Source: Dehalococcoidia bacterium
GTDB lineage: Bacteria > Chloroflexota > Dehalococcoidia > GIF9 > AB-539-J10
Length of the DNA: 64,000 nucleotides
Assembly: GCA_003552125.1 (NCBI GenBank)
Contig: PUON01000154.1
Span: forward strand, 21,965 to 85,964
Reading direction: 5' to 3'
Both the position numbers and the translations under genes were made by a program. The notes below the pieces were generated by a model. That model was not told where the DNA came from. It made no database searches and saw only the letters and a program-made list of their open reading frames with translations. This document shows, in pieces, positions 18,829 to 32,790 of the stretch (positions are counted from its first letter, which is position 1; each line of letters begins with the position of its first letter).

Positions 18829-20190
18829 TTATGTCCGCTTCGCAGGCCAGTCCGATGCCGCTGTGGCGTCGCTTTGCCACCATCGCAGGATGTCGGCGAC
18901 AAGGAACAATGAGCCAGCCACGCAGACTGAACCGGCCGCACCTGCCATCTTCCGCGCCCATCCTAACGCCTCCAGAGGATCTTCCTCACAACATAATGGA
19001 AGCCCCAAGTCACTGACCCGCTGCGCAATTTCACACGGACTGAGGGCTCGCGATTGGCTTGAACGGGTGAGTATGATTCGGCCGCCGAGCGGCAGCAGCT
19101 CTCTGATCGTCCCTCTGACATCCTTGTCACTTGAGAACCCGATCACGAACACAACGTCATTCACAATACCAAGCCTCGCCATGCTCTCAGCCAAACGACG
19201 CATAGATGCCGGATTGTGGGCACCATCCAGCACGAGCAGCGGGTGCAGTGCCAGTATCTGGAACCTTCCCGGCCAGCGTGTCTCCGCAAACCCTTGAGTC
19301 ACACATGCATGTTCCAGCTTCAGTCCTTCATCAGTAAGTGCCTCGAGTGCAGCCACCGCCGTGGCTGCGTTCTCCGCCTGAAACGATCCACACAGCGAGG
19401 TGCGGTACTCACGCTGACCACTGGCCGTCCGAACCTTGAGTAGTTGCCCGCTGAGAGAGAGTTCTTCCACTTGAAATGTCACGTCTGCCCCCACTCGCAC
19501 CAGTCGTGCGCCGCTACGGGAACACGCAGCCGCAATCACCCGCATGGCGCCAGGATCCTGCGGCGCACTCACCACCACCGCACCCGGCTTGATGATACCC
19601 GTCTTTTCTCCGGCAATTGCTTCGATGGTATTGCCAAGCACCGCCGTGTGCTCCAGACTGATCGGCGCGATGACACATACATGCGGCCTCACCACATTGG
19701 TCGCATCGAGCCGTCCTCCCAGTCCCACTTCTATCACTTGTGCCTCCACGCCTCTCGCGCGAAAGTACAAGAACGCGAGAGTAGTGACCACCTCGAAGTA
19801 CGTGAAACGCCGCCATTGGCCCTCGGACTGCATCGCTTCCAGGTGCGGCAGCGCCAGGTCCAGCATTTCGCTGAGCTCTGTCGGGGTGATGCACTCGCCA
19901 TCAACCTGGATGCGCTCTCCCAAGTGGACCAGATGCGGCGACGTGTACAGGCCGGTCTTCAGGCCGCACGCGCCCAGACCACCGGCAGTCAGTGCGGAGA
20001 TGCTGCCCTTGCCCTTGCTTCCCGCCACGTGAATAGTGACGGGTCCCAGGTGAGGATCTCCGAGCCGACGCAATAACTCACGCACGTGGCTGAGATCATA
20101 ACCGGCATCAGCGAAACCGAAACCCGGGATGGTTTCGTAGTTGGCGTACAAAGCGAGCCGACGCTCAATTGTGGAGAAGTCCTCGATCAT
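18829..20190 (-). CDS. folC: Bifunctional folylpolyglutamate synthase / dihydrofolate synthase.
   Basis: VAGSKGKGS P-loop. Mur-ligase fold. The start is trimmed to ATG 20190 to avoid overlapping the divergent MaoC gene. Confidence 0.8.
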   Translation of the reverse strand: MIEDFSTIERRLALYANYETIPGFGFADAGYDLSHVRELLRRLGDPHLGPVTIHVAGSKGKGSISALTAGGLGACGLKTGLYTSPHLVHLGERIQVDGECITPTELSEMLDLALPHLEAMQSEGQWRRFTYFEVVTTLAFLYFRARGVEAQVIEVGLGGRLDATNVVRPHVCVIAPISLEHTAVLGNTIEAIAGEKTGIIKPGAVVVSAPQDPGAMRVIAAACSRSGARLVRVGADVTFQVEELSLSGQLLKVRTASGQREYRTSLCGSFQAENAATAVAALEALTDEGLKLEHACVTQGFAETRWPGRFQILALHPLLVLDGAHNPASMRRLAESMARLGIVNDVVFVIGFSSDKDVRGTIRELLPLGGRIILTRSSQSRALSPCEIAQRVSDLGLPLCCEEDPLEALGWARKMAGAAGSVCVAGSLFLVADILRWWQSDATAASDWPAKRT

Positions 20191-22353: not shown

Positions 22354-23541
22354 GTGACTCGTTTCATATTCCACGTTGATCTGGATGCGTTCTTCGTTGC
22401 GGTGGAGCAGCTTCACAATCCATCGCTGCGAGGAAAGCCAGTCATCGTTGGAGGCCAACCGGGCTCCCGCGGCGTCGTGTCGGCGGCTTCATACGAGGCA
22501 CGGGAATACGGAGTTCGCTCTGCAATGCCACTCATACAGGCGCAGCGACTCTGTCCGCAGGCGGTATTCCTCCCCGTTCACTACTCGCGCTACGCACAGG
22601 CATCGAAACAGTTCATGATGCTGCTGGAAACACTGTCGGCCCGATTGGAACCCCTCGGCCTCGACGAAGCGTTCCTCGATGTGTCTTCCGTGGTTACAGG
22701 CACCGGGGAAGCAGCTGCACTCGCCCAGGCTCTGAAGCGACGCGTCAGTGACGAGCTAGGTCTCTGCTGCTCCGTAGGAGTGGCTACCTGCAAGACTGTG
22801 GCAAAGGTCGCCTCGGATTTCGACAAACCGGATGGTCTCACTGTGGTCCCCCCGGGTGAGGAGGCCTCCTTTCTTGCTCCGCTGGAGATTCGAAAACTAC
22901 CCGGCGCAGGAAGGAAGACAGCAGAATGCCTCGGAGACCTGGGGGTGCACACCATAGGTCAACTGGCAAGTCTTCGGGAAGGCGTCGTACGGAACAAGCT
23001 CGGCAGATACGGCGATCTGCTGCTGCAGCACGCCAGAGGAATCGATACCAGCGAAGTCGAACCTCGCGGTGAACCGCGCTCAGTGAGCCGGGAGACGACG
23101 TTTCAAATCGACTCGCGAGATATCACCACGCTGTACTCAGTGTTGCGGGCTATGAGCGAGGAGGTGGCTCAAGACCTGCGAACTCATCGAAAGCGTGCGG
23201 GCACTGTCACTCTCAAGCTGCGCTACCAGGACTTCCAGACAGTTACACGCCAGACCACGCTCAAGAAGCACTCCGCCGATGCGAACGAGTTCTTTCTGGC
23301 CGCGAGAGATCTGCTGCAGAGACTCCTAAGCGTCGATGAGCGACTCGTCCGGCTCATAGGCATTCGGACCTCCCGGCTCTGCGGACCGGAGCATCAGTTG
23401 GGCATGTTCTCTTCCGATGCAGCCAGGCTGCAGAATCTGGAGAGGGTTATTACCGAGATCCATGATCGGTATGGACCGGACTCCATTCGCCCCCTGAGTG
23501 ACCGCAAAAGGAGCCGGGATTCTTCTCCTCGAAAGACTTGA
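22354..23541 (+). CDS. dinB: DNA polymerase IV.
   Basis: IFHVDLDAFFVAVEQ...PVIVGG ... Y-family polymerase motifs. Confidence 0.9.
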   Translation: MTRFIFHVDLDAFFVAVEQLHNPSLRGKPVIVGGQPGSRGVVSAASYEAREYGVRSAMPLIQAQRLCPQAVFLPVHYSRYAQASKQFMMLLETLSARLEPLGLDEAFLDVSSVVTGTGEAAALAQALKRRVSDELGLCCSVGVATCKTVAKVASDFDKPDGLTVVPPGEEASFLAPLEIRKLPGAGRKTAECLGDLGVHTIGQLASLREGVVRNKLGRYGDLLLQHARGIDTSEVEPRGEPRSVSRETTFQIDSRDITTLYSVLRAMSEEVAQDLRTHRKRAGTVTLKLRYQDFQTVTRQTTLKKHSADANEFFLAARDLLQRLLSVDERLVRLIGIRTSRLCGPEHQLGMFSSDAARLQNLERVITEIHDRYGPDSIRPLSDRKRSRDSSPRKT

Positions 23542-23567
23542 CAGGCGACACCCGGGCCCTCTATTAT
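23538..23567 (+). promoter_or_regulatory. Sigma-70-like promoter for the ilv leader.
   Basis: TTGACA (23538-23543, overlapping the dinB stop), an 18-nt spacer, and TATTAT (23562-23567). The leader ATG is at 23584. Confidence 0.5.
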
Positions 23568-23583
23568 CTACAGTTAATACGAC

Positions 23584-23682
23584 ATGGAAAGCCTTGCATT
23601 AATAGTCTCCCCCGGTCTCATCCTTATTAGCATCATCATTATTGTGCGCACCGTGCGTGCGCCCGGGAGGCTGTTCGGCTAG
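23584..23682 (+). CDS. ilvL: ilvB-operon attenuator leader peptide, 32 aa.
   Basis: MESLALIVSPGLILISIIIIVRTVRAPGRLFG has 15 of 32 residues as Ile/Leu/Val, including four consecutive Ile codons. It is followed by an antiterminator segment and a terminator. Confidence 0.75.
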   Translation: MESLALIVSPGLILISIIIIVRTVRAPGRLFG

Positions 23683-23708
23683 TCCATACCATCAGATCAA
23701 CGACAAGC

Positions 23709-23746
23709 AGAGGGGCTCTCCCGGGTGGAGAGCCCCTCTCTTTTGT
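23709..23746 (+). terminator. Attenuator terminator upstream of ilvB.
   Basis: 12-bp perfect stem AGAGGGGCUCUC/GAGAGCCCCUCU with a CCGGGUG loop, then CUUUUG. The upstream CCCGGGAG (23662-23669) is complementary to CUCCCGGG (23718-23725), giving an antiterminator. Confidence 0.8.
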
Positions 23747-23788
23747 CCGCGCGAGAACAAGGCGTTACGACGAGAAGAAAGGAGCATC

Positions 23789-25474
23789 ATGAATAGGACG
23801 GGTGCACAGATCCTCTGCGAATCCCTGGTACGCGAAGGGGTAGAAGTGATCTTCGGCATCTCCGGTGGTACCGTCATTCCCCTCTACGATGCCTTCTCGG
23901 AGTATCCGCAGATTCGGCGGGTCCTCGTGCGCCACGAGCAGGCTGCAGCCCACGCAGCTGCAGGCTATGCGCGGACGAAGCAGAAGGCAGGCGTATGTGT
24001 CGCCACTTCCGGACCGGGTGCCACTAACCTTGTGACCGGCATCGCCGATGCCTACATGGACTCCACTCCGATGGTTGTCATTACCGGACAGGTTGCCACA
24101 AGCTTCATCGGTAAAGACGCCTTTCAGGAATGCGACATCACGGGAATCACTCTGCCAATCATCAAGCACAACTATCTGGTACACGACGTGCGGGATCTGG
24201 CGCGAATCGTCAAGGAGGCGTTCCACATTGCTCAGACAGGCAGGCCGGGGCCGGTACTCATCGACATCCCCAAGAGCGTCCAGATGGCGGTGACCGAATT
24301 CGAGTATCCGGATTCAGTGGATCTGCCGGGCTACAAACCCACTGCGGAACCGGACTACTCGCATGTCACCTGTGCAGCAGAACTGCTCAACAGGGCTGAG
24401 CGGCCGGTTATTATGGCGGGCAGGGGAGTGATCGTTTCGCAGGCATACGAGGAGCTGAGACAACTCGCCGAAATGTATCAGGCTCCGGTCGTTCACACGA
24501 TGCTGGGCCTCGGTTCGTTCCCTCCGCAGCATGATCTCGATCTGGGCATGATCGGTCACCACGGCACTGTGGCTGCCAACAAAACCGTGCAGGCTGCGGA
24601 TCTTGTCCTGGCAGTGGGGACACGTTTCGGAGATCGTGCCACGATGAGAACCAGAGATTTCGCTCCTCATGCGGTAGTGGTGCACATTGACATAGACCCG
24701 GCTGAGATAGGCAAGAACGTGATTCCGTTCGCATCTGTTGTAGGAGACGCAAAGACCGTGCTGAACATGCTGATTCCGCTGGTTCAGCCGGCAGTCAGGC
24801 CAGAATGGATACAGCAGATCCGCACGTGGCGGTCGACACATCCGCTCGTACCCTGCGCCCGGACCTCCAAGCTGTCCGCCCGCACGGTGATCAGGAACGT
24901 CTGTCGCTCCGCCGACAGCCATACCGTCATAGTAACCGGGGTCGGCCAGCATCAGATGTTTACGGCCCAGGAATACATGTCTCCAAGAACGAACGGCCTG
25001 ATATCTTCTGGAGGACTTGGGACCATGGGATTCGAGCTCCCTGCCGCGATTGGAGCACAGTTGGCTTCTCCTGAAGACGCAGTGTGGGTGGTCGCCGGTG
25101 ACGGTGGCTTCCAGATGACCATGCAGGAGCTGTCAACCGTCGTACAGGAAGGTCTCTCCATCAAGATCGCCATTATCAGTAATGGATACCTGGGCATGGT
25201 GCGACAATGGCAGGATCTCTTCCAGCAACGCAACTACGTTGATGTGGCACTCCACGCGCCGGATTTTGTCAAGCTTGCCGACGCCTACGGCATCACCGCG
25301 ATGCGTGTCGAGACGGAGGAGGAGATTGGTCCTGCGCTGAGGAAAGCGAACGAACACAGTGGGCCGTTTCTGATCGACTTTGTAGTCGATGCCGAGGAAA
25401 ACGTATATCCGATGGTCGCGCCCGGAGCAAGCCTCGACTGTATTATCGAATCACCTGAGAAGGTCGCAGCTTGA
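23789..25474 (+). CDS. ilvB: Acetolactate synthase large subunit.
   Basis: ThDP-enzyme motifs. N-terminus MNRTGAQILCESLVREGVEVIFG. AAAGGAG SD. Confidence 0.9.
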   Translation: MNRTGAQILCESLVREGVEVIFGISGGTVIPLYDAFSEYPQIRRVLVRHEQAAAHAAAGYARTKQKAGVCVATSGPGATNLVTGIADAYMDSTPMVVITGQVATSFIGKDAFQECDITGITLPIIKHNYLVHDVRDLARIVKEAFHIAQTGRPGPVLIDIPKSVQMAVTEFEYPDSVDLPGYKPTAEPDYSHVTCAAELLNRAERPVIMAGRGVIVSQAYEELRQLAEMYQAPVVHTMLGLGSFPPQHDLDLGMIGHHGTVAANKTVQAADLVLAVGTRFGDRATMRTRDFAPHAVVVHIDIDPAEIGKNVIPFASVVGDAKTVLNMLIPLVQPAVRPEWIQQIRTWRSTHPLVPCARTSKLSARTVIRNVCRSADSHTVIVTGVGQHQMFTAQEYMSPRTNGLISSGGLGTMGFELPAAIGAQLASPEDAVWVVAGDGGFQMTMQELSTVVQEGLSIKIAIISNGYLGMVRQWQDLFQQRNYVDVALHAPDFVKLADAYGITAMRVETEEEIGPALRKANEHSGPFLIDFVVDAEENVYPMVAPGASLDCIIESPEKVAA

Positions 25475-25491
25475 CTGCCGGGAGGAGCACC

Positions 25492-25995
25492 ATGGAAGAG
25501 AAGCTGCACACCCTCGTCGCACTCGTTCAGGACGAACCAGGAGTCCTGACGCGCATCGCGGGACTGTTTCGCCGCAGGGGATTCAATATAGAGAGCCTCT
25601 CAGTGGGGCACTGCGAACAACACCGTCTGTCGCGCATGACCATCGTAGTTAAGGGGGATGATGCAGAAGTCGACCAGGTGACCAGGCAACTCGACAAGCT
25701 GATAAACGTCGTGAGTGTCACCGACATCACTCGTTGCGACATGGTCGCAAGGGAACTCGCCCTGATTAAGGTGACAGCCACATCTGAGGATCGCAGCGAA
25801 ATCATGCAGATGGTCGATATCTATCGCGCGAAGATAGTCGATGTTGCCCCTGACTCAGTCACCGTGGAGATTACCGGGGGGGAAGACAAGATCGACTCTC
25901 TTCTCACTTTGCTCAGGCCCTTTGGGATCACTGAAATGGCGAGAACCGGACGAACGGCGCTCATCAGGGGCGCCAAATCCAGTATCAATAATTAA
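25492..25995 (+). CDS. ilvN: Acetolactate synthase small (regulatory) subunit.
   Basis: ACT domain [30 protein letters not shown]. Confidence 0.9.
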
Positions 25996-26015
25996 GCGGA
26001 TTGGAGGATTTCGAC

Positions 26016-27008
26016 ATGGCCAAGGTTTACTACGACAGCGACGCCGATCTTTCTCACTTGAAGGGAGGCGTCATAGGCATCGTTGGTTACGGCAGCCAGG
26101 GACACGCCCATGCGCAGAACCTAAGAGACAGTGGCTGCGAGGTGGTGGTGGCAAGCAGGCCCGGCGGTGCCGGCTGGAAAGCGGCCGAGGCTGATGGCTT
26201 TGCCGTCATGAGCGTCGCACAGGCGACGAAGAAGGCGGACATCCTGACGCTGTTGGCGCCCGACAATCAGCATGCCGCGATATATACTGAGTCGATCGAG
26301 CCGAACCTGACGGCGGGTAAGACGCTCATGTTCGCTCATGGCTTCAACGTTCATTTCTCCCAGGTTGTGCCTCCCCGGGATGTAGACGTCAGCATGGTGG
26401 CGCCGAAGTGTCCCGGACACATGCTTCGGGCAATATACACGGAAGACGCAGGCCCTCCGGCCATCATGGCCGTGTATCAGGACGTCTCCGGCAAGGCGAA
26501 GGAGGTGGCCCTGGCGTACGCCAGGGGTCTTGGCTGTACTCGTGCGGGCGTCATCGAGACGACGTTCGCGGAGGAGACCGAGACCGACCTGTTTGGTGAA
26601 CAGACCGTGCTCTGTGGCGGAGTGACCGCCCTGATCAAGGCAGGATTTGACACGCTTGTCGAAGCTGGTTACCAGCCGGAGATCGCCTACTTCGAATGCC
26701 TCAACGAGTTGAAGCTTATCGTTGACCTCATCTACCAGGGTGGAATGAAGTACATGCGCTACTCGGTTAGCGATGTCGCCGAGTTCGGCGACTACACCCG
26801 GGGACCACGCATCATAAATGAGTCAGTCCGCGAGGAGATGAGAAAGGTACTCAAGGAAGTCAAGGATGGCACGTTCGCTCTCGAATGGGTCGTGGAAAAC
26901 CAGGCGGGTCGGCCTCATTTCAACGCCATGAAAAGAAACGAACAACAGGAGCTCATCGAGGTAGTCGGTGAGCAATTGAGAGGAATGATGCCATGGACGA
27001 AGAAGTAG
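26016..27008 (+). CDS. ilvC: Ketol-acid reductoisomerase.
   Basis: [13 protein letters not shown]...[17 protein letters not shown]. Confidence 0.95.
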
Positions 27009-28636
27009 ACATTACGAGGGAGAGGTGCGGACAGGAACCGCCCCCTTCGCCCGTTCTCAGATCAGTACCCGACACCGTTATCATCTTCGATACAACCCTG
27101 CGGGATGGAGAGCAGGCTGCAGGCACGAGCCTCACCGCGAAGGAGAAGCTCACCATCGCGCGACAACTCGACACTTTGGGTGTCGATGTCATCGAAGCGG
27201 GCTTTCCGATAAGCTCGCCGGGCGATTTCGAGGCTGTGCAACTCATCGCCCGGGAAGTACGTCGGCCGGTCATCTGCGCCCTGGCGCATTGCAGACCAGC
27301 TGCAATCGACCGGGCATGGGAGGCGCTCAGAGAGGCCCCTCACCCGCGCATCCACGTCTTTCTGTCCGCCTCGGACGTACAACTCGCCCACATGCTCAAG
27401 AAGAGCCGTCAGGAGGCTCTGGAACTGGCACGTGAGATGGTGGCAAGGGCAAAGACCTACACAGACGACGTGGAGTTCTCCCCGATGGACGCCACACGTG
27501 CCGAGCCGGAGTTTCTGAACCAGTTGCTTGCAGCAGTCATTGATGCCGGAGCTGTCACCGTGAACATCGCCGATACCGTCGGCTATAGCACGGTAAACGA
27601 GTTCTCCTCGCTGATACATGGAATCACGAAGAATGTAGCGAACATCGACAGCGCCTGCATCAGCGTCCACTGTCACGATGATCTCGGCCTGGCAGTTGCG
27701 AATAGCCTGGAAGCTGTGCGAATGGGAGCCAGGCAGGTTGAGTGCACCATAAACGGCATCGGTGAGCGCGCCGGCAACGCTGCACTGGAAGAAATCGTAA
27801 TGGCGTTGCGAACACGGGCAGATACGTTCTCCGTGGCAACAAACATAGACACCACTCAACTCTACAAGACAAGCAGGTCGGTGAGCGACCTCACCGGGTT
27901 CCTTGTACAATCGAACAAGGCAATCGTGGGTGCGAACGCGTTCAGACACCAGTCCGGCATACACCAGGACGGGATGGTTAAGGAGTCCTCCACATACGAG
28001 ATCATGGACCCGCGATCCGTCGGAATCCCCGCCAGCAGTCTTGTACTCGGGAAACTGAGTGGCAAGCATGCATTTCGTGAACGACTGGCCGAGCTGGGGT
28101 TTTCTCTCAGCGATGAGGCGTTGAGTCATTCATTCCAGGCGTTCAAGGAACTGGCCGACAAGAAGCGAGAGATACGGGACCGCGACCTGATATCGCTCGT
28201 TAGCGAAGAGCTCCGGCAGGAGACCCAGGTGTACCGGCTGGATCACGTCGATGTCTCCTGCGGCGACCACAGCCTGCACTCGGCAGCCGTGCGCCTCATC
28301 GGCCCGGAAGGCCAGATCCTTGCGGATGCAGCTCTTGGCACCGGACCGGTGGATGCCGTGTACCAGGTGATCAACCGGATCATCGGCATTCCCAACACAC
28401 TCGTAGAGTTCAGCATTAACGCGAATACCGAGGGATTCGATGCCATCGGAGAGGTGCTAATTCGCATCGAGAGCGAGGGCGGACTCTATACAGGCCGTGG
28501 CGCATCCACAGATATCGTTGTGGCCAGCGCAAAAGCGTACATGAACGCACTTAACCGGCTGATTCTCTCCCGGCAGGAACATGTGGATCAATCCGGGGCC
28601 GGGAACTACAATCGCGGTATGCACGAGGCATCGTGA
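26993..28636 (+). CDS. leuA: 2-isopropylmalate synthase (a citramalate synthase cannot be excluded).
   Basis: [11 protein letters not shown]. HxH metal site. A C-terminal LeuA-type regulatory domain is present. The start is uncertain. Confidence 0.85.
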
Positions 28637-29931
28637 TGGCCACCATCACAGAGAAGATTCTGGCAGCACACTCCGGGCGGGCCTTCGTCTCGCCCGGAGA
28701 TTTCGCCAATGTGTCGGTGGATATGGTGCTCGCCAACGACATCACCGGTCCTCTCGCCATCAGGGAATTCCGCAAGCTGGGTGTGACACGTGTGTTCAAT
28801 CCGGCGCGCGTGGTAATGGTGCCTGACCACTTCATACCCAACAAGGACATCCCATCGGCGATTCAGGCACAGGACATTCGCGAATTCGCGAGGGAGCAGG
28901 GTATCGTGTATTTCGAGGCCGGGAGGTCCGGAATCGAACACGTGTTGCTACCCGAGGAAGGTCTTGTCGGACCCGGGCACGTCGTCATTGGTGCCGATTC
29001 TCACACCTGCACCTACGGCGCCCTTGGTGCCTTCGCGACCGGCATGGGATCTACTGACATCGCTGCCGCCATGGCCACCGGGGACATCTGGATGAAGGTG
29101 CCTCCCACGATCAAGCTGGTGTTCCATGGGTCGCTCCAGCCCTGGACCAGCGGCAAAGACCTCATCCTGCACGCCATCGGCGACATCGGCATCGACGGGG
29201 CTCTGTATTCAGCCATGGAGTTTCACGGTGAGGCAATCCAGTTCATGGACATGGACGGGCGGTTCACGATGGCCAACATGGCCATCGAGGCAGGGGCAAA
29301 GGCCGGCGTATTCGAAGTCGATGCCACCACCGAAGAATACCTCGCCACACATCCTCAACGCGCGGGAACCGCACCCTGCCGGAGATACTTCACCGATTCG
29401 AACGCGGACTACTCGAGAATCATCGAATACGATGCCTCAACGATCGAGCCCGTGGTTGCGTTTCCACATCTCCCGTCAAACGTCAGGCCGGCGAGCACGG
29501 CCGGTGACGTGGTAATCGATCAGGTGGTCATCGGAAGCTGCACAAACGGCCGCCTGTCGGATCTGCGCATTGCGGCGCAGATCCTGCGCGGCCGCTCCGT
29601 CCACGAGTCGCTGAGATGCATCATAATTCCGGGATCGCAAAGGGTCTACCGGCAGGCAGTGGACGAGGGACTGGTCCACGTGTTCCTCGACGCGGGTGCG
29701 GTGGTCAGCACGCCCACCTGCGGCCCCTGCCTCGGAGGGTACATGGGAATCCTCGCGCCCGGCGAGCGTTGTCTCTCGACCACTAACCGGAACTTCGTCG
29801 GCCGGATGGGAAGTCCTCAGTCCGAGGTATACCTTTCCAGCCCGGCGGTCGCTGCAGCCACCGCAATCGCTGGCAGAATCTCACCGCCCGGGAACACATA
29901 CGGAGAGTCCAGGGAGGAAATCTCATGGTAG
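28633..29931 (+). CDS. leuC: 3-isopropylmalate dehydratase large subunit.
   Basis: Aconitase-family domain. Overlaps the leuA stop. Confidence 0.9.
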
Positions 29932-30431
29932 TGTTGCGTGGCAAAGCACACCTCTACGGCGCAGACGTGGACACAGACGCTATCATCCCGGCACGATACC
30001 TGAACGTCTCTGAACCTGCTCTCCTTGCAGAACACTGTATGGAGGATATCGATCCCGGGTTCCGTGAACGGGTGTCTGAGGGCGACGTAATCGTGGCCAC
30101 CACGAACTTCGGTTGCGGGTCGTCACGTGAGCATGCCCCTATTGCGATCAAGGCCTGTGGCGTATCGTGTATCATCGCCCATAGCTTCGCCCGCATCTTC
30201 TTCCGCAACGCGATCAATATCGGGCTACCCCTGCTCGAATGCCCCGAAGCCGTCTCCGGCTGCACGGACGGTGATATACTGGAAATCGACCTCATCGAAG
30301 GCAAGGTAACCAATGCGACGAGAGCACTGTCTTTCACCGCCAAGCCTTACCCACAGTTCATGATGGGCATTGTCAACGCCGGGGGTCTCATTGCATACAC
30401 GAAGCGAAGACTGGAGGAAATAGAGGCATGA
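29925..30431 (+). CDS. leuD: 3-isopropylmalate dehydratase small subunit.
   Basis: Aconitase swivel domain. Its ATG lies just upstream of the leuC stop. Confidence 0.9.
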   Translation: MVVLRGKAHLYGADVDTDAIIPARYLNVSEPALLAEHCMEDIDPGFRERVSEGDVIVATTNFGCGSSREHAPIAIKACGVSCIIAHSFARIFFRNAINIGLPLLECPEAVSGCTDGDILEIDLIEGKVTNATRALSFTAKPYPQFMMGIVNAGGLIAYTKRRLEEIEA

Positions 30432-31525
30432 GCTACAGAATCGCAGTGCTCCGGGGAGACGGAATCGGTCCGGAAGTGACTGTGGAGGCGCTCAAGGCAC
30501 TTGCTGCCATAAGGGAGCGATACGGACACGATTTCGCCTACGAGGAGGGACTTGTCGGAGGGGCATCAATTGACGAATTGGGTGTTCCCATGACCGATGA
30601 GACGCTGGCACTATGCCAAAGCTCCGATGCCGTCCTGTTCGGAGCGGCAGGAGGTCCAAAATGGGATGACGCCAGCACCGATTTTCGGCCGGAACAGGCA
30701 CTGTTTCGCCTCCGCAAGGAACTTAACCTCTTCGCCAACCTGAGGCCGGTACGATCCTATCCAATGCTCGATGAGATGAGTCCGCTGCGACCAGAGGTGG
30801 TGAAGGGGGCGGACATCATCTTCGTGAGAGAACTCACGGGCGGCCTCTATTTCGGACAGCCAAAAATGCGATGGGAGACTCCTGAAGGGAGACGCGCAGT
30901 TGATTCGGAGGACTATTCAGAACAAGAGATCGCCAGGGTGGTCCGTGTCGCATGCGAACTGGCCAGGAAACGACGCAGAAAGGTTGTGTCTGTAGACAAG
31001 TTCAACGCCCTCATTTCGTCCCGGCTCTGGCGACAGGTCGCGACTGAGGTCGGTGCGGAGTACCCCGATATCGACCTTACGCACATGCTGGCCGATACGT
31101 TTGCGATGCAACTCATCGTGCGTCCGACCCAATTCGATGTAGTCGTCACCACCAACATGTTCGGGGACATATTCACCGATGAGGCCGCTGTGCTTGCGGG
31201 TTCGATGGGCATGCTTCCCTCTGCGAGTCTTTCAGGGCTGCCCTCCGGAAGGACGCTCGGCCTCTACGAACCGATTCATGGCTCCGCTCCTGATATCGCC
31301 GGACAGGGTATAGCCAATCCGCTTGCCTCGATACTCTGTTGTGCACTACTTCTCAGGTACTCCCTGGGACTCGAGGAAGAGGCACGAGTTGTGGCTGATG
31401 CCGTCACGACGGTACTTGAGGAGGGATACCGGACGAGCGATATTCACTCGGAGGGAACGAGCAAGGTAAGCACCCAAGAGATGGGAGATCTGGTTGCTGC
31501 CAGAATTCGTGAGCCGAGGGGTTGA
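30428..31525 (+). CDS. leuB: 3-isopropylmalate dehydrogenase.
   Basis: IAVLRGDGIGPEV ... ATGA overlap with leuD. Confidence 0.9.
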   Translation: MSYRIAVLRGDGIGPEVTVEALKALAAIRERYGHDFAYEEGLVGGASIDELGVPMTDETLALCQSSDAVLFGAAGGPKWDDASTDFRPEQALFRLRKELNLFANLRPVRSYPMLDEMSPLRPEVVKGADIIFVRELTGGLYFGQPKMRWETPEGRRAVDSEDYSEQEIARVVRVACELARKRRRKVVSVDKFNALISSRLWRQVATEVGAEYPDIDLTHMLADTFAMQLIVRPTQFDVVVTTNMFGDIFTDEAAVLAGSMGMLPSASLSGLPSGRTLGLYEPIHGSAPDIAGQGIANPLASILCCALLLRYSLGLEEEARVVADAVTTVLEEGYRTSDIHSEGTSKVSTQEMGDLVAARIREPRG

Positions 31526-31577
31526 CACTGTACTACCGGCTTCTTACAATGTTAGCTTGTCGGCTGGAAGGTTGCGA

Positions 31578-31679
31578 ATGATAGCTCCAGTGGTACTTGT
31601 GACAATCGTGGTGGCAGCTGCGATCCTTATCGTGCGCACTGATGGTGCGCACGGGAGGATTCTTCAGCCGGCAAGATAG
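31578..31679 (+). CDS. Second BCAA attenuator leader peptide, 33 aa, upstream of ilvE.
   Basis: MIAPVVLVTIVVAAAILIVRTDGAHGRILQPAR has 14 of 33 residues as Val/Ile/Leu. A GGAAGG SD lies 6 nt upstream. Confidence 0.75.
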   Translation: MIAPVVLVTIVVAAAILIVRTDGAHGRILQPAR

Positions 31680-31708: not shown

Positions 31709-31742
31709 GAAGAAGCCTCCCGAGGGAGGCTTCTTCTTATTC
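31709..31742 (+). terminator. Attenuator terminator upstream of ilvE.
   Basis: Stem GAAGAAGCCUCCC/GGGAGGCUUCUUC with a GAG loop, then UUAUU. The upstream GGGAGGAUUCUUC (31653-31665) can pair with the 5' arm as an antiterminator. A perfect pause hairpin GUGCGCAC-UGAUG-GUGCGCAC lies at 31632-31652. Confidence 0.8.
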
Positions 31743-31872
31743 GGGGGATGCGACGGGAAGACAGGGAGGAATGGTAGAGGCCGGCAACTGGTACGACACC
31801 CGTCCCCGGGCGAAACGCAGCGCCGCGGAGCCGGGGAGATGACCGAAGACTTATGACAGGAGGAATGCGACA

Positions 31873-32790
31873 TTGGAACCCTATGCCTTTTTCAAAGGAG
31901 AGTACATGCCTCTCAAGGATGCCAAGATTGGCATCCTGACTCAGGCGCTGCACTACGGCACCGCATGCTTCGGCGGAATACGCGCGAACTGGGACGCCGA
32001 GAGAGAGCAGTTCTGCATATTCCGGCTGAAGGATCACTACCGCCGTCAGCTCGATGCGTGCAAGATCCTGAACATTGAACTGCCGTATGACGAGCACGAT
32101 CTTGCCGGGTTCACCGTGGAAACCTTGAAGCGGGCCGGCTTCAGGGAGAATCTCTACTGCAGGCCGCTCGCCTACAAGTCCTCGGAGGCGATCGGGGTGA
32201 AGCTACACGACCTCGAGGACGATTTCTTCGTCATCGTAACCCCTCTTCCCCCGTACCTGGGCACCGGCGGAATCAAGTGCTGTACGTCATCCTGGCGGAG
32301 AGTGAGCGACAGCCAGATATCGCCCCGGGGAAAGATCACCGGCATCTACGTCAACAGCGCGCTCGCGAAGACCGACGCCAACAGAACAGGCTTTGATGAA
32401 GCCATCATGCTGAACGAAAAGGGACACGTATCCGAGGGAACTGGCGAGAACATCTTTGTAGTCATCAAGGGACAGCTCATCACTCCTCCCTCCTATGACA
32501 GCATCCTGCTCGGAATCACCCGGGATAGCGTGATGCAACTGGCGCAGAACGAATTGGGTCTGCAGACTGTTGAACGCAGCATCGACCGAAGTGAGCTGTA
32601 CGTGGCGGATGAGGCGTTCTTCACGGGTACCGCGACCAATGTCGCGCCAATCGTGTCGGTCGACCTGCGGACGATCGGCAACGGCGAAACCGGTCCGATT
32701 ACAGCAAGGCTTCAGGAATTGTATGCAGAGGTGGCACTGGGACGCAATCCGAAGTACTCTGAGTGGTACACGATTGTGAAGCAGGACTAG
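31873..32790 (+). CDS. ilvE: Branched-chain amino-acid aminotransferase.
   Basis: ...KGEYMPLKDAKIGILTQALHYGTACFGGIR. TTG start after ACAGGAGGA. Confidence 0.9.
   Translation: MEPYAFFKGEYMPLKDAKIGILTQALHYGTACFGGIRANWDAEREQFCIFRLKDHYRRQLDACKILNIELPYDEHDLAGFTVETLKRAGFRENLYCRPLAYKSSEAIGVKLHDLEDDFFVIVTPLPPYLGTGGIKCCTSSWRRVSDSQISPRGKITGIYVNSALAKTDANRTGFDEAIMLNEKGHVSEGTGENIFVVIKGQLITPPSYDSILLGITRDSVMQLAQNELGLQTVERSIDRSELYVADEAFFTGTATNVAPIVSVDLRTIGNGETGPITARLQELYAEVALGRNPKYSEWYTIVKQD

Follow-up and report, generated by a model that had tools for sequence, protein, structure and literature searches.

Two putative leader-peptide attenuators with a probably homologous core precede ilvBNC-leuACDB and ilvE in a Dehalococcoidia bacterium

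Introduction

A general model of leader-peptide attenuation has been described (PMC1183508). The classical cases closest to the two leaders reported here, which lie in front of the ilvBNC-leuACDB operon and of ilvE in a 64-kb stretch of DNA from a Dehalococcoidia bacterium (the window, taken at its full length), are the enterobacterial attenuators of ilvGMEDA (leader ilvL), ilvBN (ivbL) and trp as found in Escherichia coli. As read from the sequence, the new leaders appear to share with these a short open reading frame (ORF) containing a run of pathway-amino-acid codons (Ile, Leu and Val in ilvL and ivbL), mutually exclusive antiterminator and terminator structures, a stop codon that lets an unstalled ribosome mask the antiterminator strand and, as for ilvL and ivbL, control of branched-chain amino acid (BCAA) biosynthesis genes. 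Unlike the E. coli ilv attenuators, to which they show no sequence or Rfam similarity, they belong to a Chloroflexota host and precede an ilvBNC-leuACDB operon and ilvE alone. Furthermore, the ilvB-type and ilvE-type leaders of one Dehalococcoidia genome appear homologous and share an invariant hairpin, whereas ilvL and ivbL are, to our knowledge, not recognisably homologous and have no invariant hairpin in common.

T-box leaders resemble the present family in evolutionary pattern only, as a conserved RNA scaffold that is reused before many amino-acid genes with its sensing codons swapped, a pattern that arises there by duplication followed by a change of the specifier codon. They act by binding of transfer RNA (tRNA) instead of ribosome stalling, and the whole window returned no Rfam match at gathering thresholds, T-box included. 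At E<=10, positions 23400-23900 gave only sub-threshold matches to unrelated families over the terminator hairpin.

Comparative genomics has also uncovered such leaders outside Proteobacteria, namely the ilvBNC attenuator or ilvB-II upstream ORF motif of Corynebacterium (PMC10272879, PMC11109978, PMC11857589) and further actinobacterial leaders (PMC1262725), which, as here, combine an Ile/Leu/Val-enriched upstream ORF before ilvB with antiterminator and terminator stems. The Corynebacterium motif differs from ours in sequence and structure and is confined to one genus and one operon, with no core shared with the leaders of other operons. Naville and Gautheret (PMC2965389) stated that, until they added Firmicutes, Proteobacteria and Actinobacteria were the only groups in which these systems were known. 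The His leaders of hisZ and hisS* in bacilli from the same study come close to the present case in that two highly similar leader-peptide attenuators occur in one genome and are attributed to duplication. There, however, gene and attenuator were duplicated as one (the hisS paralogs) and the amino-acid specificity stayed the same, whereas the Dehalococcoidia scaffold stands before non-homologous genes (ilvB, ilvE and an acyl-CoA ligase/transporter operon) and its codon run differs from copy to copy.

Searches of the accessible literature gave nothing specific on leader-peptide attenuation in Dehalococcoidia or Chloroflexi. The mechanism proposed below is textbook; what is new is an uncatalogued family in which one scaffold is reused before operons of at least four kinds, non-homologous ones among them, with different codon runs. 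Classical leader-peptide attenuation would thereby be extended to Chloroflexota (Dehalococcoidia), and the family, which is alignable and backed by covariation and has more than 60 distinct members, would be suitable for deposition as an RNA family and as an aid to annotating BCAA regulation among uncultured Dehalococcoidia. The family also provides a clear case of one genome in which attenuators that precede non-homologous genes can be shown to be paralogs, and this points to spread by copying of a working scaffold and not by de novo origin.

Results and Discussion

In our view, the two stretches are the cores, homologous to each other, of a pair of ribosome-mediated leader-peptide attenuators of transcription, one for ilvBNC-leuACDB and one for ilvE, that are paralogs of one ancestral scaffold, and we assign this reading a probability of roughly 0.8. 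Both lie on the plus strand at the 3' ends of short leader ORFs, at 23641-23676 in leader ORF 1 and at 31629-31665 in leader ORF 2, and each occurs only once in the window. No gaps are needed to align them, and their reading frames coincide (IVRTVRAPGRLF / IVRTDGAHGRIL), with 26 of 36 positions identical over the part quoted in the original prediction; the best ungapped 36-mer between them reaches 29 of 36, compared with 300 dinucleotide shuffles that average 19.2 and reach 23 at most. Resampling of the codons with both peptides fixed and local codon usage attributes about 21.7 of the 36 identities to peptide likeness alone and yields P = 0.017 for 26 or more. The conserved nucleotide core claimed in the original prediction is thus present in both attenuators, and the likeness exceeds what two IVRT-coding GC-rich stretches would provide.

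The shared core reads GUGCGCAC-N5-GUGCG(C)-N2-3-GGGAGG, a small hairpin and, after it, an antiterminator 5' strand whose partner is the CCUCCC arm in each terminator. The pattern GTGCGCAC-N5-GTGCG-N3-GGGRGG has exactly two matches in the window, where 0.07 are expected even at three mismatches, and the scan found no third copy there. Both leaders fit the definition proposed for a new family, the Dehalococcoidia 'GCGCAC-hairpin/GGGAGG' leader attenuators: an in-frame core [GA][UG]GCGCA[CU]-N5-GUGCG-N3-GGGRGG at the 3' end of an ORF, with a CCUCCC terminator 35-60 nucleotides (nt) later. A near-match on the minus strand (19487-19513) carries three mismatches and was dismissed as chance. The two terminators had been described as different, which is correct for their basal stems; their apical CUCCC(G)...GGGAG part is alike, because the same part must pair with the shared GGGAGG.

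Homology between the leaders was examined with a covariance model, R1, made from ilvB leaders only, with the hairpin and the antiterminator as its structure, and searched over the window and all loci collected from relatives. R1 scores ilvB leaders at 98-118 bits (the window ilvB leader at 117.9) and finds the window ilvE leader at 33.1 bits with an E value of 7.9e-7 (1.4 Mb, both strands), as the covariance search put forward in the original prediction had envisaged; together with the extra copies in related genomes, this detection of an ilvE leader by an ilvB-only model supports the suggested duplication or modular reuse. The model also picks up the ilvE leader of every relative, at 28-50 bits, including ones outside the exact pattern, and two further leader classes described below reach 22-41 bits (before ilvE2, a second ilvE paralog) and 24-37 bits (class C, before an acyl-CoA-ligase-like gene). 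Chance matches to the 19 specified bases score 13 bits or less, and 77 distant Dehalococcoidia loci (L004-L080, about 1.3 Mb) yielded nothing, the best score being 11.7 bits at E 3.4. Across genomes the ilvB leaders are thus far more alike (98-118 bits) than each is to the ilvE leader that shares its genome (28-50 bits), so the duplication is old and has not been homogenised by gene conversion.

The features of leader 1, as recognised in the sequence or by comparison with relatives, are:

22354-23541, dinB (NCBIfam)
23538..23567, plus strand, promoter-like site of leader 1, TTGACA-18-TATTAT, 11/12 match
23584..23682, plus strand, leader ORF 1, MESLALIVSPGLILISIIIIVRTVRAPGRLFG and stop, with an Ile/Leu/Val run (LILISIIIIV) at about 23617-23646
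23603..23611, plus strand, candidate region 1 (putative anti-antiterminator strand), AGUCUCCC, complementary to GGGAGGCU, from minimum free energy (MFE) folds
23644..23662, plus strand, conserved hairpin, GUGCGCAC (23644-51), loop CGUGC, GUGCGC (23657-62)
23662..23670, plus strand, region 2, antiterminator 5' strand, CCC-GGGAGG, pairing with 23718-23725
23709..23747, plus strand, intrinsic terminator 1, 13-bp stem (23709-23739), loop CGGGU, CUUUUG tail
23718-23725, plus strand, region 3, terminator 1 5' arm and loop, CUCCCGGG
23789..31525, plus strand, operon ilvB-ilvN-ilvC-leuA-leuC-leuD-leuB (NCBIfam equivalogs), synteny conserved in relatives
23789-25474, plus strand, ilvB (NCBIfam)

Those of leader 2 are:

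31522..31550, plus strand, promoter-like site of leader 2, TTGACA-17-TACAAT, 11/12 match
31578..31679, plus strand, leader ORF 2, MIAPVVLVTIVVAAAILIVRTDGAHGRILQPAR and stop, codon run VVLVTIVV...ILIV
31622..31663, plus strand, extended 1:2 hairpin, GAUCCUU.AUC-GUGCGCAC-UGAUG-GUGCGCAC-GGGAGGAUU, from the fold
31652..31665, plus strand, region 2, antiterminator 5' strand, CGGGAGG-A-UUCUUC, pairing with 31709-31722
31709..31745, plus strand, intrinsic terminator 2, stem 31709-31736 GAAGAAGCCUCCC-GA-GGGAGGCUUCUUC, then UUAUUC, the U tract lying partly within the stem
31873..32790, plus strand, ilvE, branched-chain aminotransferase (NCBIfam)
after ilvE, convergent, relA/spoT (NCBIfam)

The TTGAC(A)...TAnTAT arrangement recurs in the leaders of relatives, and orthologs of leader ORF 1 precede ilvB in L001, L003, L081 and others, and L144-L151, while leader ORFs orthologous to leader 2 stand upstream of ilvE in about 25 loci. 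Altogether, leader ORFs with a conserved regulatory codon run amount to more than 60 distinct leaders. An SD-like (Shine-Dalgarno) GGAAGG at 31566-31571 lies 6 nt before the ATG of leader 2. The UAG of leader 1 begins 9 nt after GGGAGG, a distance that holds across ilvB leaders; in leader 2 it comes 18 nt after GGGAGG, but the distal UUCUUC segment of the strand ends only about 11 nt before it.

Both terminator hairpins are strong, and folds of the two leaders reach z scores of -4.6 and -5.0; 95.7% of terminator cells in the ilvB class and 91.5% in the ilvE class are paired. When the stretch between arm 2 of the hairpin and the 5' arm of the terminator is folded, long-range antiterminator helices appear. 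The leader 1 antiterminator joins CGCCCGGGAGGCU with GGCUCUCCCGGGUG at -35.3 kcal/mol (z -3.85), and that of leader 2 joins CGGGAGG.UUCUUC with GAAGAAG.CCUCCCG at -23.7 kcal/mol. Across 27 ilvB leaders, 97.9% of cells in the nine antiterminator pairs are paired, compared with 27-68% when the strand is slid; three pairs changed on both sides (AU/CG/UA/UG) contribute 21 double-change cells, which none of 500 shuffles reach. In these leaders the three bases before GGGAGG have their partners on the terminator loop's 3' side, in the combinations CCC/GGG, CUU/AAG, UCU/AGA, CCU/AGG, ACU/AGU, UUU/AAA and UCC/GGA, and these covarying columns are free of ascertainment bias because they are N in the search pattern. 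RNAalifold, applied to 33 ilvB leaders, independently predicts the hairpin followed by the antiterminator, the two helices abutting with no base between. Covariation, which the original prediction had named as a check, is found for the bases beside GGGAGG, which covary as antiterminator, but hardly at all for the GUGCGCAC hairpin, which is conserved almost without it.

Each unit consists of a sigma-70-like promoter, a 32-33-codon Ile/Leu/Val-rich ORF, the hairpin, two to three free bases with GGGAGG and, 40-50 nt later, a terminator with a CCUCCC 5' arm; the hairpin GUGCGCAC-N5-GUGCG(C) is encoded by the last regulatory Val codon and Arg-Thr-x-x-Ala. That the leaders are translated, that ribosomes stall in them and that this depends on amino acids we infer by analogy to the trp and ilv attenuators. 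When charged Ile-, Leu- or Val-tRNA is scarce, the ribosome would stall on the hydrophobic codons and keep the upstream pyrimidine-rich codons and arm 1 of the hairpin off GGGAGG, so that the free N3-GGGAGG(+CUUCUUC) could pair with the terminator 5' arm and loop, forming the antiterminator and allowing read-through. With plentiful amino acids, the ribosome would reach the stop codon and mask the GGGAGG strand, whereupon the terminator would form and transcription end. In the absence of translation, upstream codons (AGUCUCCC in leader 1, AUCCUU in leader 2) may pair with GGGAGG and likewise lead to termination.

These region 1 pairings are plausible. The MFE fold of leader 1 pairs GGGAGGCUGUU with the upstream AAUAGUCUCCC, the small hairpin being nested inside, and about 22 of 33 ilvB leaders carry AGYCUCCC at a distance of 31-40 nt ahead of the core. 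The corresponding fold in leader 2 is a 20-bp hairpin (-31.7 kcal/mol, z -5.2) that joins the Ile/Leu codons and arm 1 to arm 2 and GGGAGGAUU and sequesters GGGAGG; the inner 10-11 pairs of this extended 1:2 hairpin are kept in 80-100% of 20 ilvE leaders. The invariant hairpin itself could possibly act as a pause element, stack coaxially on the antiterminator, serve as an anti-antiterminator or be the site of a trans-acting factor.

Relatives were fetched by a LeuA-based scan with one genome per species, by which the window falls within Dehalococcoidia (Chloroflexota). Only the two closest syntenic loci from metagenome-assembled genomes (MAGs), L001 and L003 (LeuA 81%), share the arrangement dinB-[leader]-ilvBNC-leuACDB-[leader]-ilvE, and in both, which had been obtained via LeuA and not by a DNA pattern, both leaders are present with the exact core. 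More than 50 more distant Dehalococcoidia loci (IlvB 49-60% identity) have no Ile/Leu/Val-rich leader ORF upstream of ilvB, and the family is therefore taken to be confined to a clade with IlvB identities of at least 66%, which a gap in the identities of IlvB homologs (>=66%, then <=63%) marks off. Its taxonomic breadth rests on MAG labels. Eight loci were fetched through IlvB homologs of 67-82% identity, to avoid ascertainment by the pattern. The ilvB leader is present in all eight, seven times exactly and once as a variant (L150), and each of the six loci that contain ilvE has the ilvE leader, in the exact form (one), as GUGCGCAU (three, C to U giving a U.G wobble) or as AUGCGCAC (two). Scanning metagenome contigs for the exact pattern yielded 63 loci, comprising about 50 leader ORFs of three kinds, 12 sites inside long GC-rich ORFs, which score at most 13 bits with the covariance model and were rejected as chance, and L123, which was left unclassified with 15.9 bits in R1 and no CCUCCC terminator.

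Further copies of the module, which the original prediction had suggested looking for, turned up in relatives before a LivH/LivM-type transporter operon and a second ilvE paralog, though not as a third copy in the window. In four loci the paralog ilvE2, whose product shares about 63% identity with IlvE, is preceded by a copy of its own:

L146:19185-19313, ilvE2 leader
L149:15468-15591, ilvE2 leader
L125:1170-1293, minus strand, ilvE2 leader
L137:2522-2645, minus strand, ilvE2 leader

L146 thus holds three module copies in one genome. The ilvE2 leaders are rich in Met (MTMSRVLSMATIVAMMRTMCAHGRLLPKKG; ME(V/L)VR(T/Q)M..AAAMAMVHLMMRPNA..GGCR), with five to six internal Met in about 30 codons, and a 6-nt hairpin loop puts GGGAGG in another frame. 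Such a leader may be a methionine-responsive attenuator for an aminotransferase in Met regeneration. Class C copies, whose hosts are AT-richer Dehalococcoidales, lie upstream of a 634-aa acyl-CoA-ligase-like gene with LivH/LivM-type permeases and a Peripla_BP_6 binding protein:

L084:6021-6182, minus strand, class C leader
L097, L098, L106 and L132, class C leaders
L152:2870-3007, class C leader
L153:2860-2993, class C leader
L154:2852-2987, class C leader

In the class C peptide ..ELEKPKF(I/V)F(T/I)(G/V)RT.. the sole codon run is Phe-Ile/Val-Phe, the core is mostly GGGCGCAC-N5-GUGCGC-N2-GGGAGG (Gly-Arg-Thr), and the AUCUUU codons pair with GGGAGGU. The module was found in all three loci fetched via the ligase, independently of the pattern, and class C may be large because thousands of ligase homologs exist.

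Two kinds of variant separate the RNA from the peptide it encodes. The ilvB leader at L150:9836-9957 has a rearranged, 1-nt-shifted core (GUGCGUCGUUUGUGCGCACCGGGAGG) with a peptide ending in VVVRRLCAPGGCQAS and still scores 70.9 bits, and the ilvE2 leaders end in LMMRPNARVGGCR; in both, the frames are shifted and the hairpin, GGGAGG and terminator kept. As these shifted-frame variants keep the RNA elements and not the peptide, the constraint is on the RNA. Wherever bases pair, the codons are constant throughout the family (GUG CGC ACn nnn nGU GCG nnn GGG RGG), and amino acids vary at free bases: nGU encodes R, S or G, and the codon that precedes GGG any of P, L, S, T, H, R, Q and F.

Other explanations of the likeness have to be weighed against common descent. 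Two ILV attenuators that evolved independently could look alike because both require Ile/Val codons, a hairpin rich in GC and a purine strand able to pair with the terminator; leader-peptide attenuators are thought to arise repeatedly, convergence between phyla has been argued (PMC2965389), GGGAGG/CCUCCC is an obvious strong helix, and peptide likeness by itself explains most of the identities counted above. Any hairpin would do for such a device, yet dozens of genomes and four operon types show the same arms of 6-8 nt with the same 5-nt loop, spacing and frame, and the codon-resampling null is hard to reconcile with chance convergence. Moreover, the ilvB-only model finds all other classes at full length at E 1e-5 to 1e-12 and nothing elsewhere, and distant Dehalococcoidia without any leader offer no pool of independent ILV leaders; we regard convergence as improbable. 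A dispersed repeat or mobile element (of the repetitive extragenic palindromic, REP, or miniature inverted-repeat transposable element, MITE, kind) or recent gene conversion without regulatory meaning would fit the palindromic GC-rich motif, which is typical of REP elements, as well as unrelated GTGCGCAC-containing tandem repeats in L105 and L112. We give it next to no credence, since the 64 kb contain two copies and no more, 1.9 Mb of related loci contain no stray one, every copy sits in frame within a leader ORF ahead of a terminator, and ilvB leaders match those of other genomes far above their own ilvE leader.

A different role for the same element was considered as well. The palindrome GTGCGCAC(-N5-GTGCGCAC) might be a DNA operator or RNA site whose protein factor sets read-through instead of or besides stalling, in keeping with a core that is conserved in sequence without compensatory changes, beyond the needs of a hairpin, and with the perfect 8-bp palindrome, repeated twice, of leader 2. 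We deem this unlikely, as the second copy in ilvB leaders is just GTGCG plus variable bases, the first copy in class C is GGGCGCAC, the ilvE2 leader of L149 keeps the hairpin with other bases (AUGCGC/GCGCGU), the element lies within the leader ORF at a distance of about 60-75 nt downstream from the promoter, the bases next to it covary as RNA and no candidate regulator gene is linked. Nor does the in-frame motif V-R-T-x-x-A-x-G-R, although conserved in most members, seem to act as a nascent arrest or sensor peptide with the nucleotide likeness as by-product: its residues change at unconstrained bases (x = V/S/L/E/D/A/I/G), GRT (class C), VRI and MRT variants occur, the frame-shifted L150 and ilvE2 leaders still score 22-71 bits with the RNA model, and codon choice is fixed (GUG CGC AC, GCG, GGG AGG), rarer codons included. 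This renders a peptide-based explanation highly improbable.

Several observations nevertheless weigh against the reading as paralogous attenuators. Leader ORF 1 has no obvious SD and starts only about 16 nt after the -10 hexamer, in the window (23562-23586) as in its orthologs, which makes its translation uncertain; its mRNA would have a very short 5' untranslated region or be nearly leaderless. The plus-strand U tract of terminator 2 is poor (4/8 U), and a simple scan flags this stem on the minus strand only. Region 1 pairing lacks statistical support in either leader class: the test per sequence was not significant in ilvB leaders, and the extended 1:2 helix is invariant, with no covariation, in 20 ilvE leaders. 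Covariation is also weak in the ilvE-class antiterminator, in which 84% of cells are paired versus 33-61% when slid. The conserved hairpin has no covariation support because its stem is essentially invariant: the five to six central pairs never vary (5 bp are invariant in 33/33 ilvB leaders), with a freely varying loop, and thus carry no information for or against pairing, while a hairpin as such would call for less conservation of sequence than is seen. Finally, most metagenome members were retrieved by the exact pattern, whose positions are invariant there by construction, and 64 kb of this organism's own genome were covered.

On the reading as paralogous attenuators, the ancestral scaffold would have been copied before non-homologous genes prior to the radiation of the clade. 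A more far-reaching version, which we advance only tentatively and consider rather doubtful, holds that one scaffold spread over unrelated Dehalococcoidia operons and was re-specified by swapping the codon run, from Ile/Leu/Val (ilvB, ilvE) to Met (the second ilvE-like aminotransferase) and Phe/Ile (acyl-CoA-ligase/LivHM uptake), in a T-box-like modular evolution, with an extra sequence-specific role, for instance as polymerase pause element or protein site, for the near-invariant GCGCAC/GUGCGC hairpin. If true, this would be a mode of modular evolution not previously documented for ribosome-mediated attenuators, including a rare methionine-sensing leader peptide, and the Met-rich and Phe/Ile-rich copies would represent natural experiments on re-programming attenuator specificity.

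Some loci depart from the common arrangement. A subclade with the leader ..SLVLVAVRT.. (L083, L088, L092, L100, L118, L121, L139, L147 and L150) has ilvB alone behind the leader, with neither dinB upstream nor ilvN, ilvC or leu genes downstream of ilvB; the same attenuator therefore serves different operon architectures. At L108:7490-7619 (minus strand) and L101:1632-1731, a leader MASGALQMYVCMAVMIIVRTHSALGRLLT lies directly between dinB and ilvE; its position and tail are of the ilvB type while the downstream gene is ilvE, so that it looks like a rearranged or recombinant module. A relaxed scan (up to 3 mismatches) of 1.76 Mb of loci gave only reverse-strand palindrome readings, chance sites and the unrelated repeats of L105 (about 2940-2990) and L112 (about 1590-1760), tandem units of about 13 nt with GTGCGCAC (GGTGCGCACGGCA-like) inside long ORFs, which were rejected as relatives of the leaders and are a source of chance pattern matches.

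The -35 hexamer TTGACA of leader 2 (31522-31527) includes the leuB stop TGA (31523-31525). No terminator separates leuB from leader 2, and therefore read-through from the ilvB operon would also cross attenuator 2. Between terminator 2 and the SD of ilvE, at 31798-31845 of the window, an element CCCGUCCCCGGGC-N6-GCAGCGCCGCGGAGCCGGGG recurs in most ilvE-class loci with the consensus CCNGGGC...GCAGCGCCNCGGAGGCGG, and a AAAGGAGG-like box directly follows the terminator. RNAalifold gave a consensus of only 4 bp for the element, on rough coordinates. One compensatory change (L102) hints at a hairpin, and the element may constitute a second regulatory layer.

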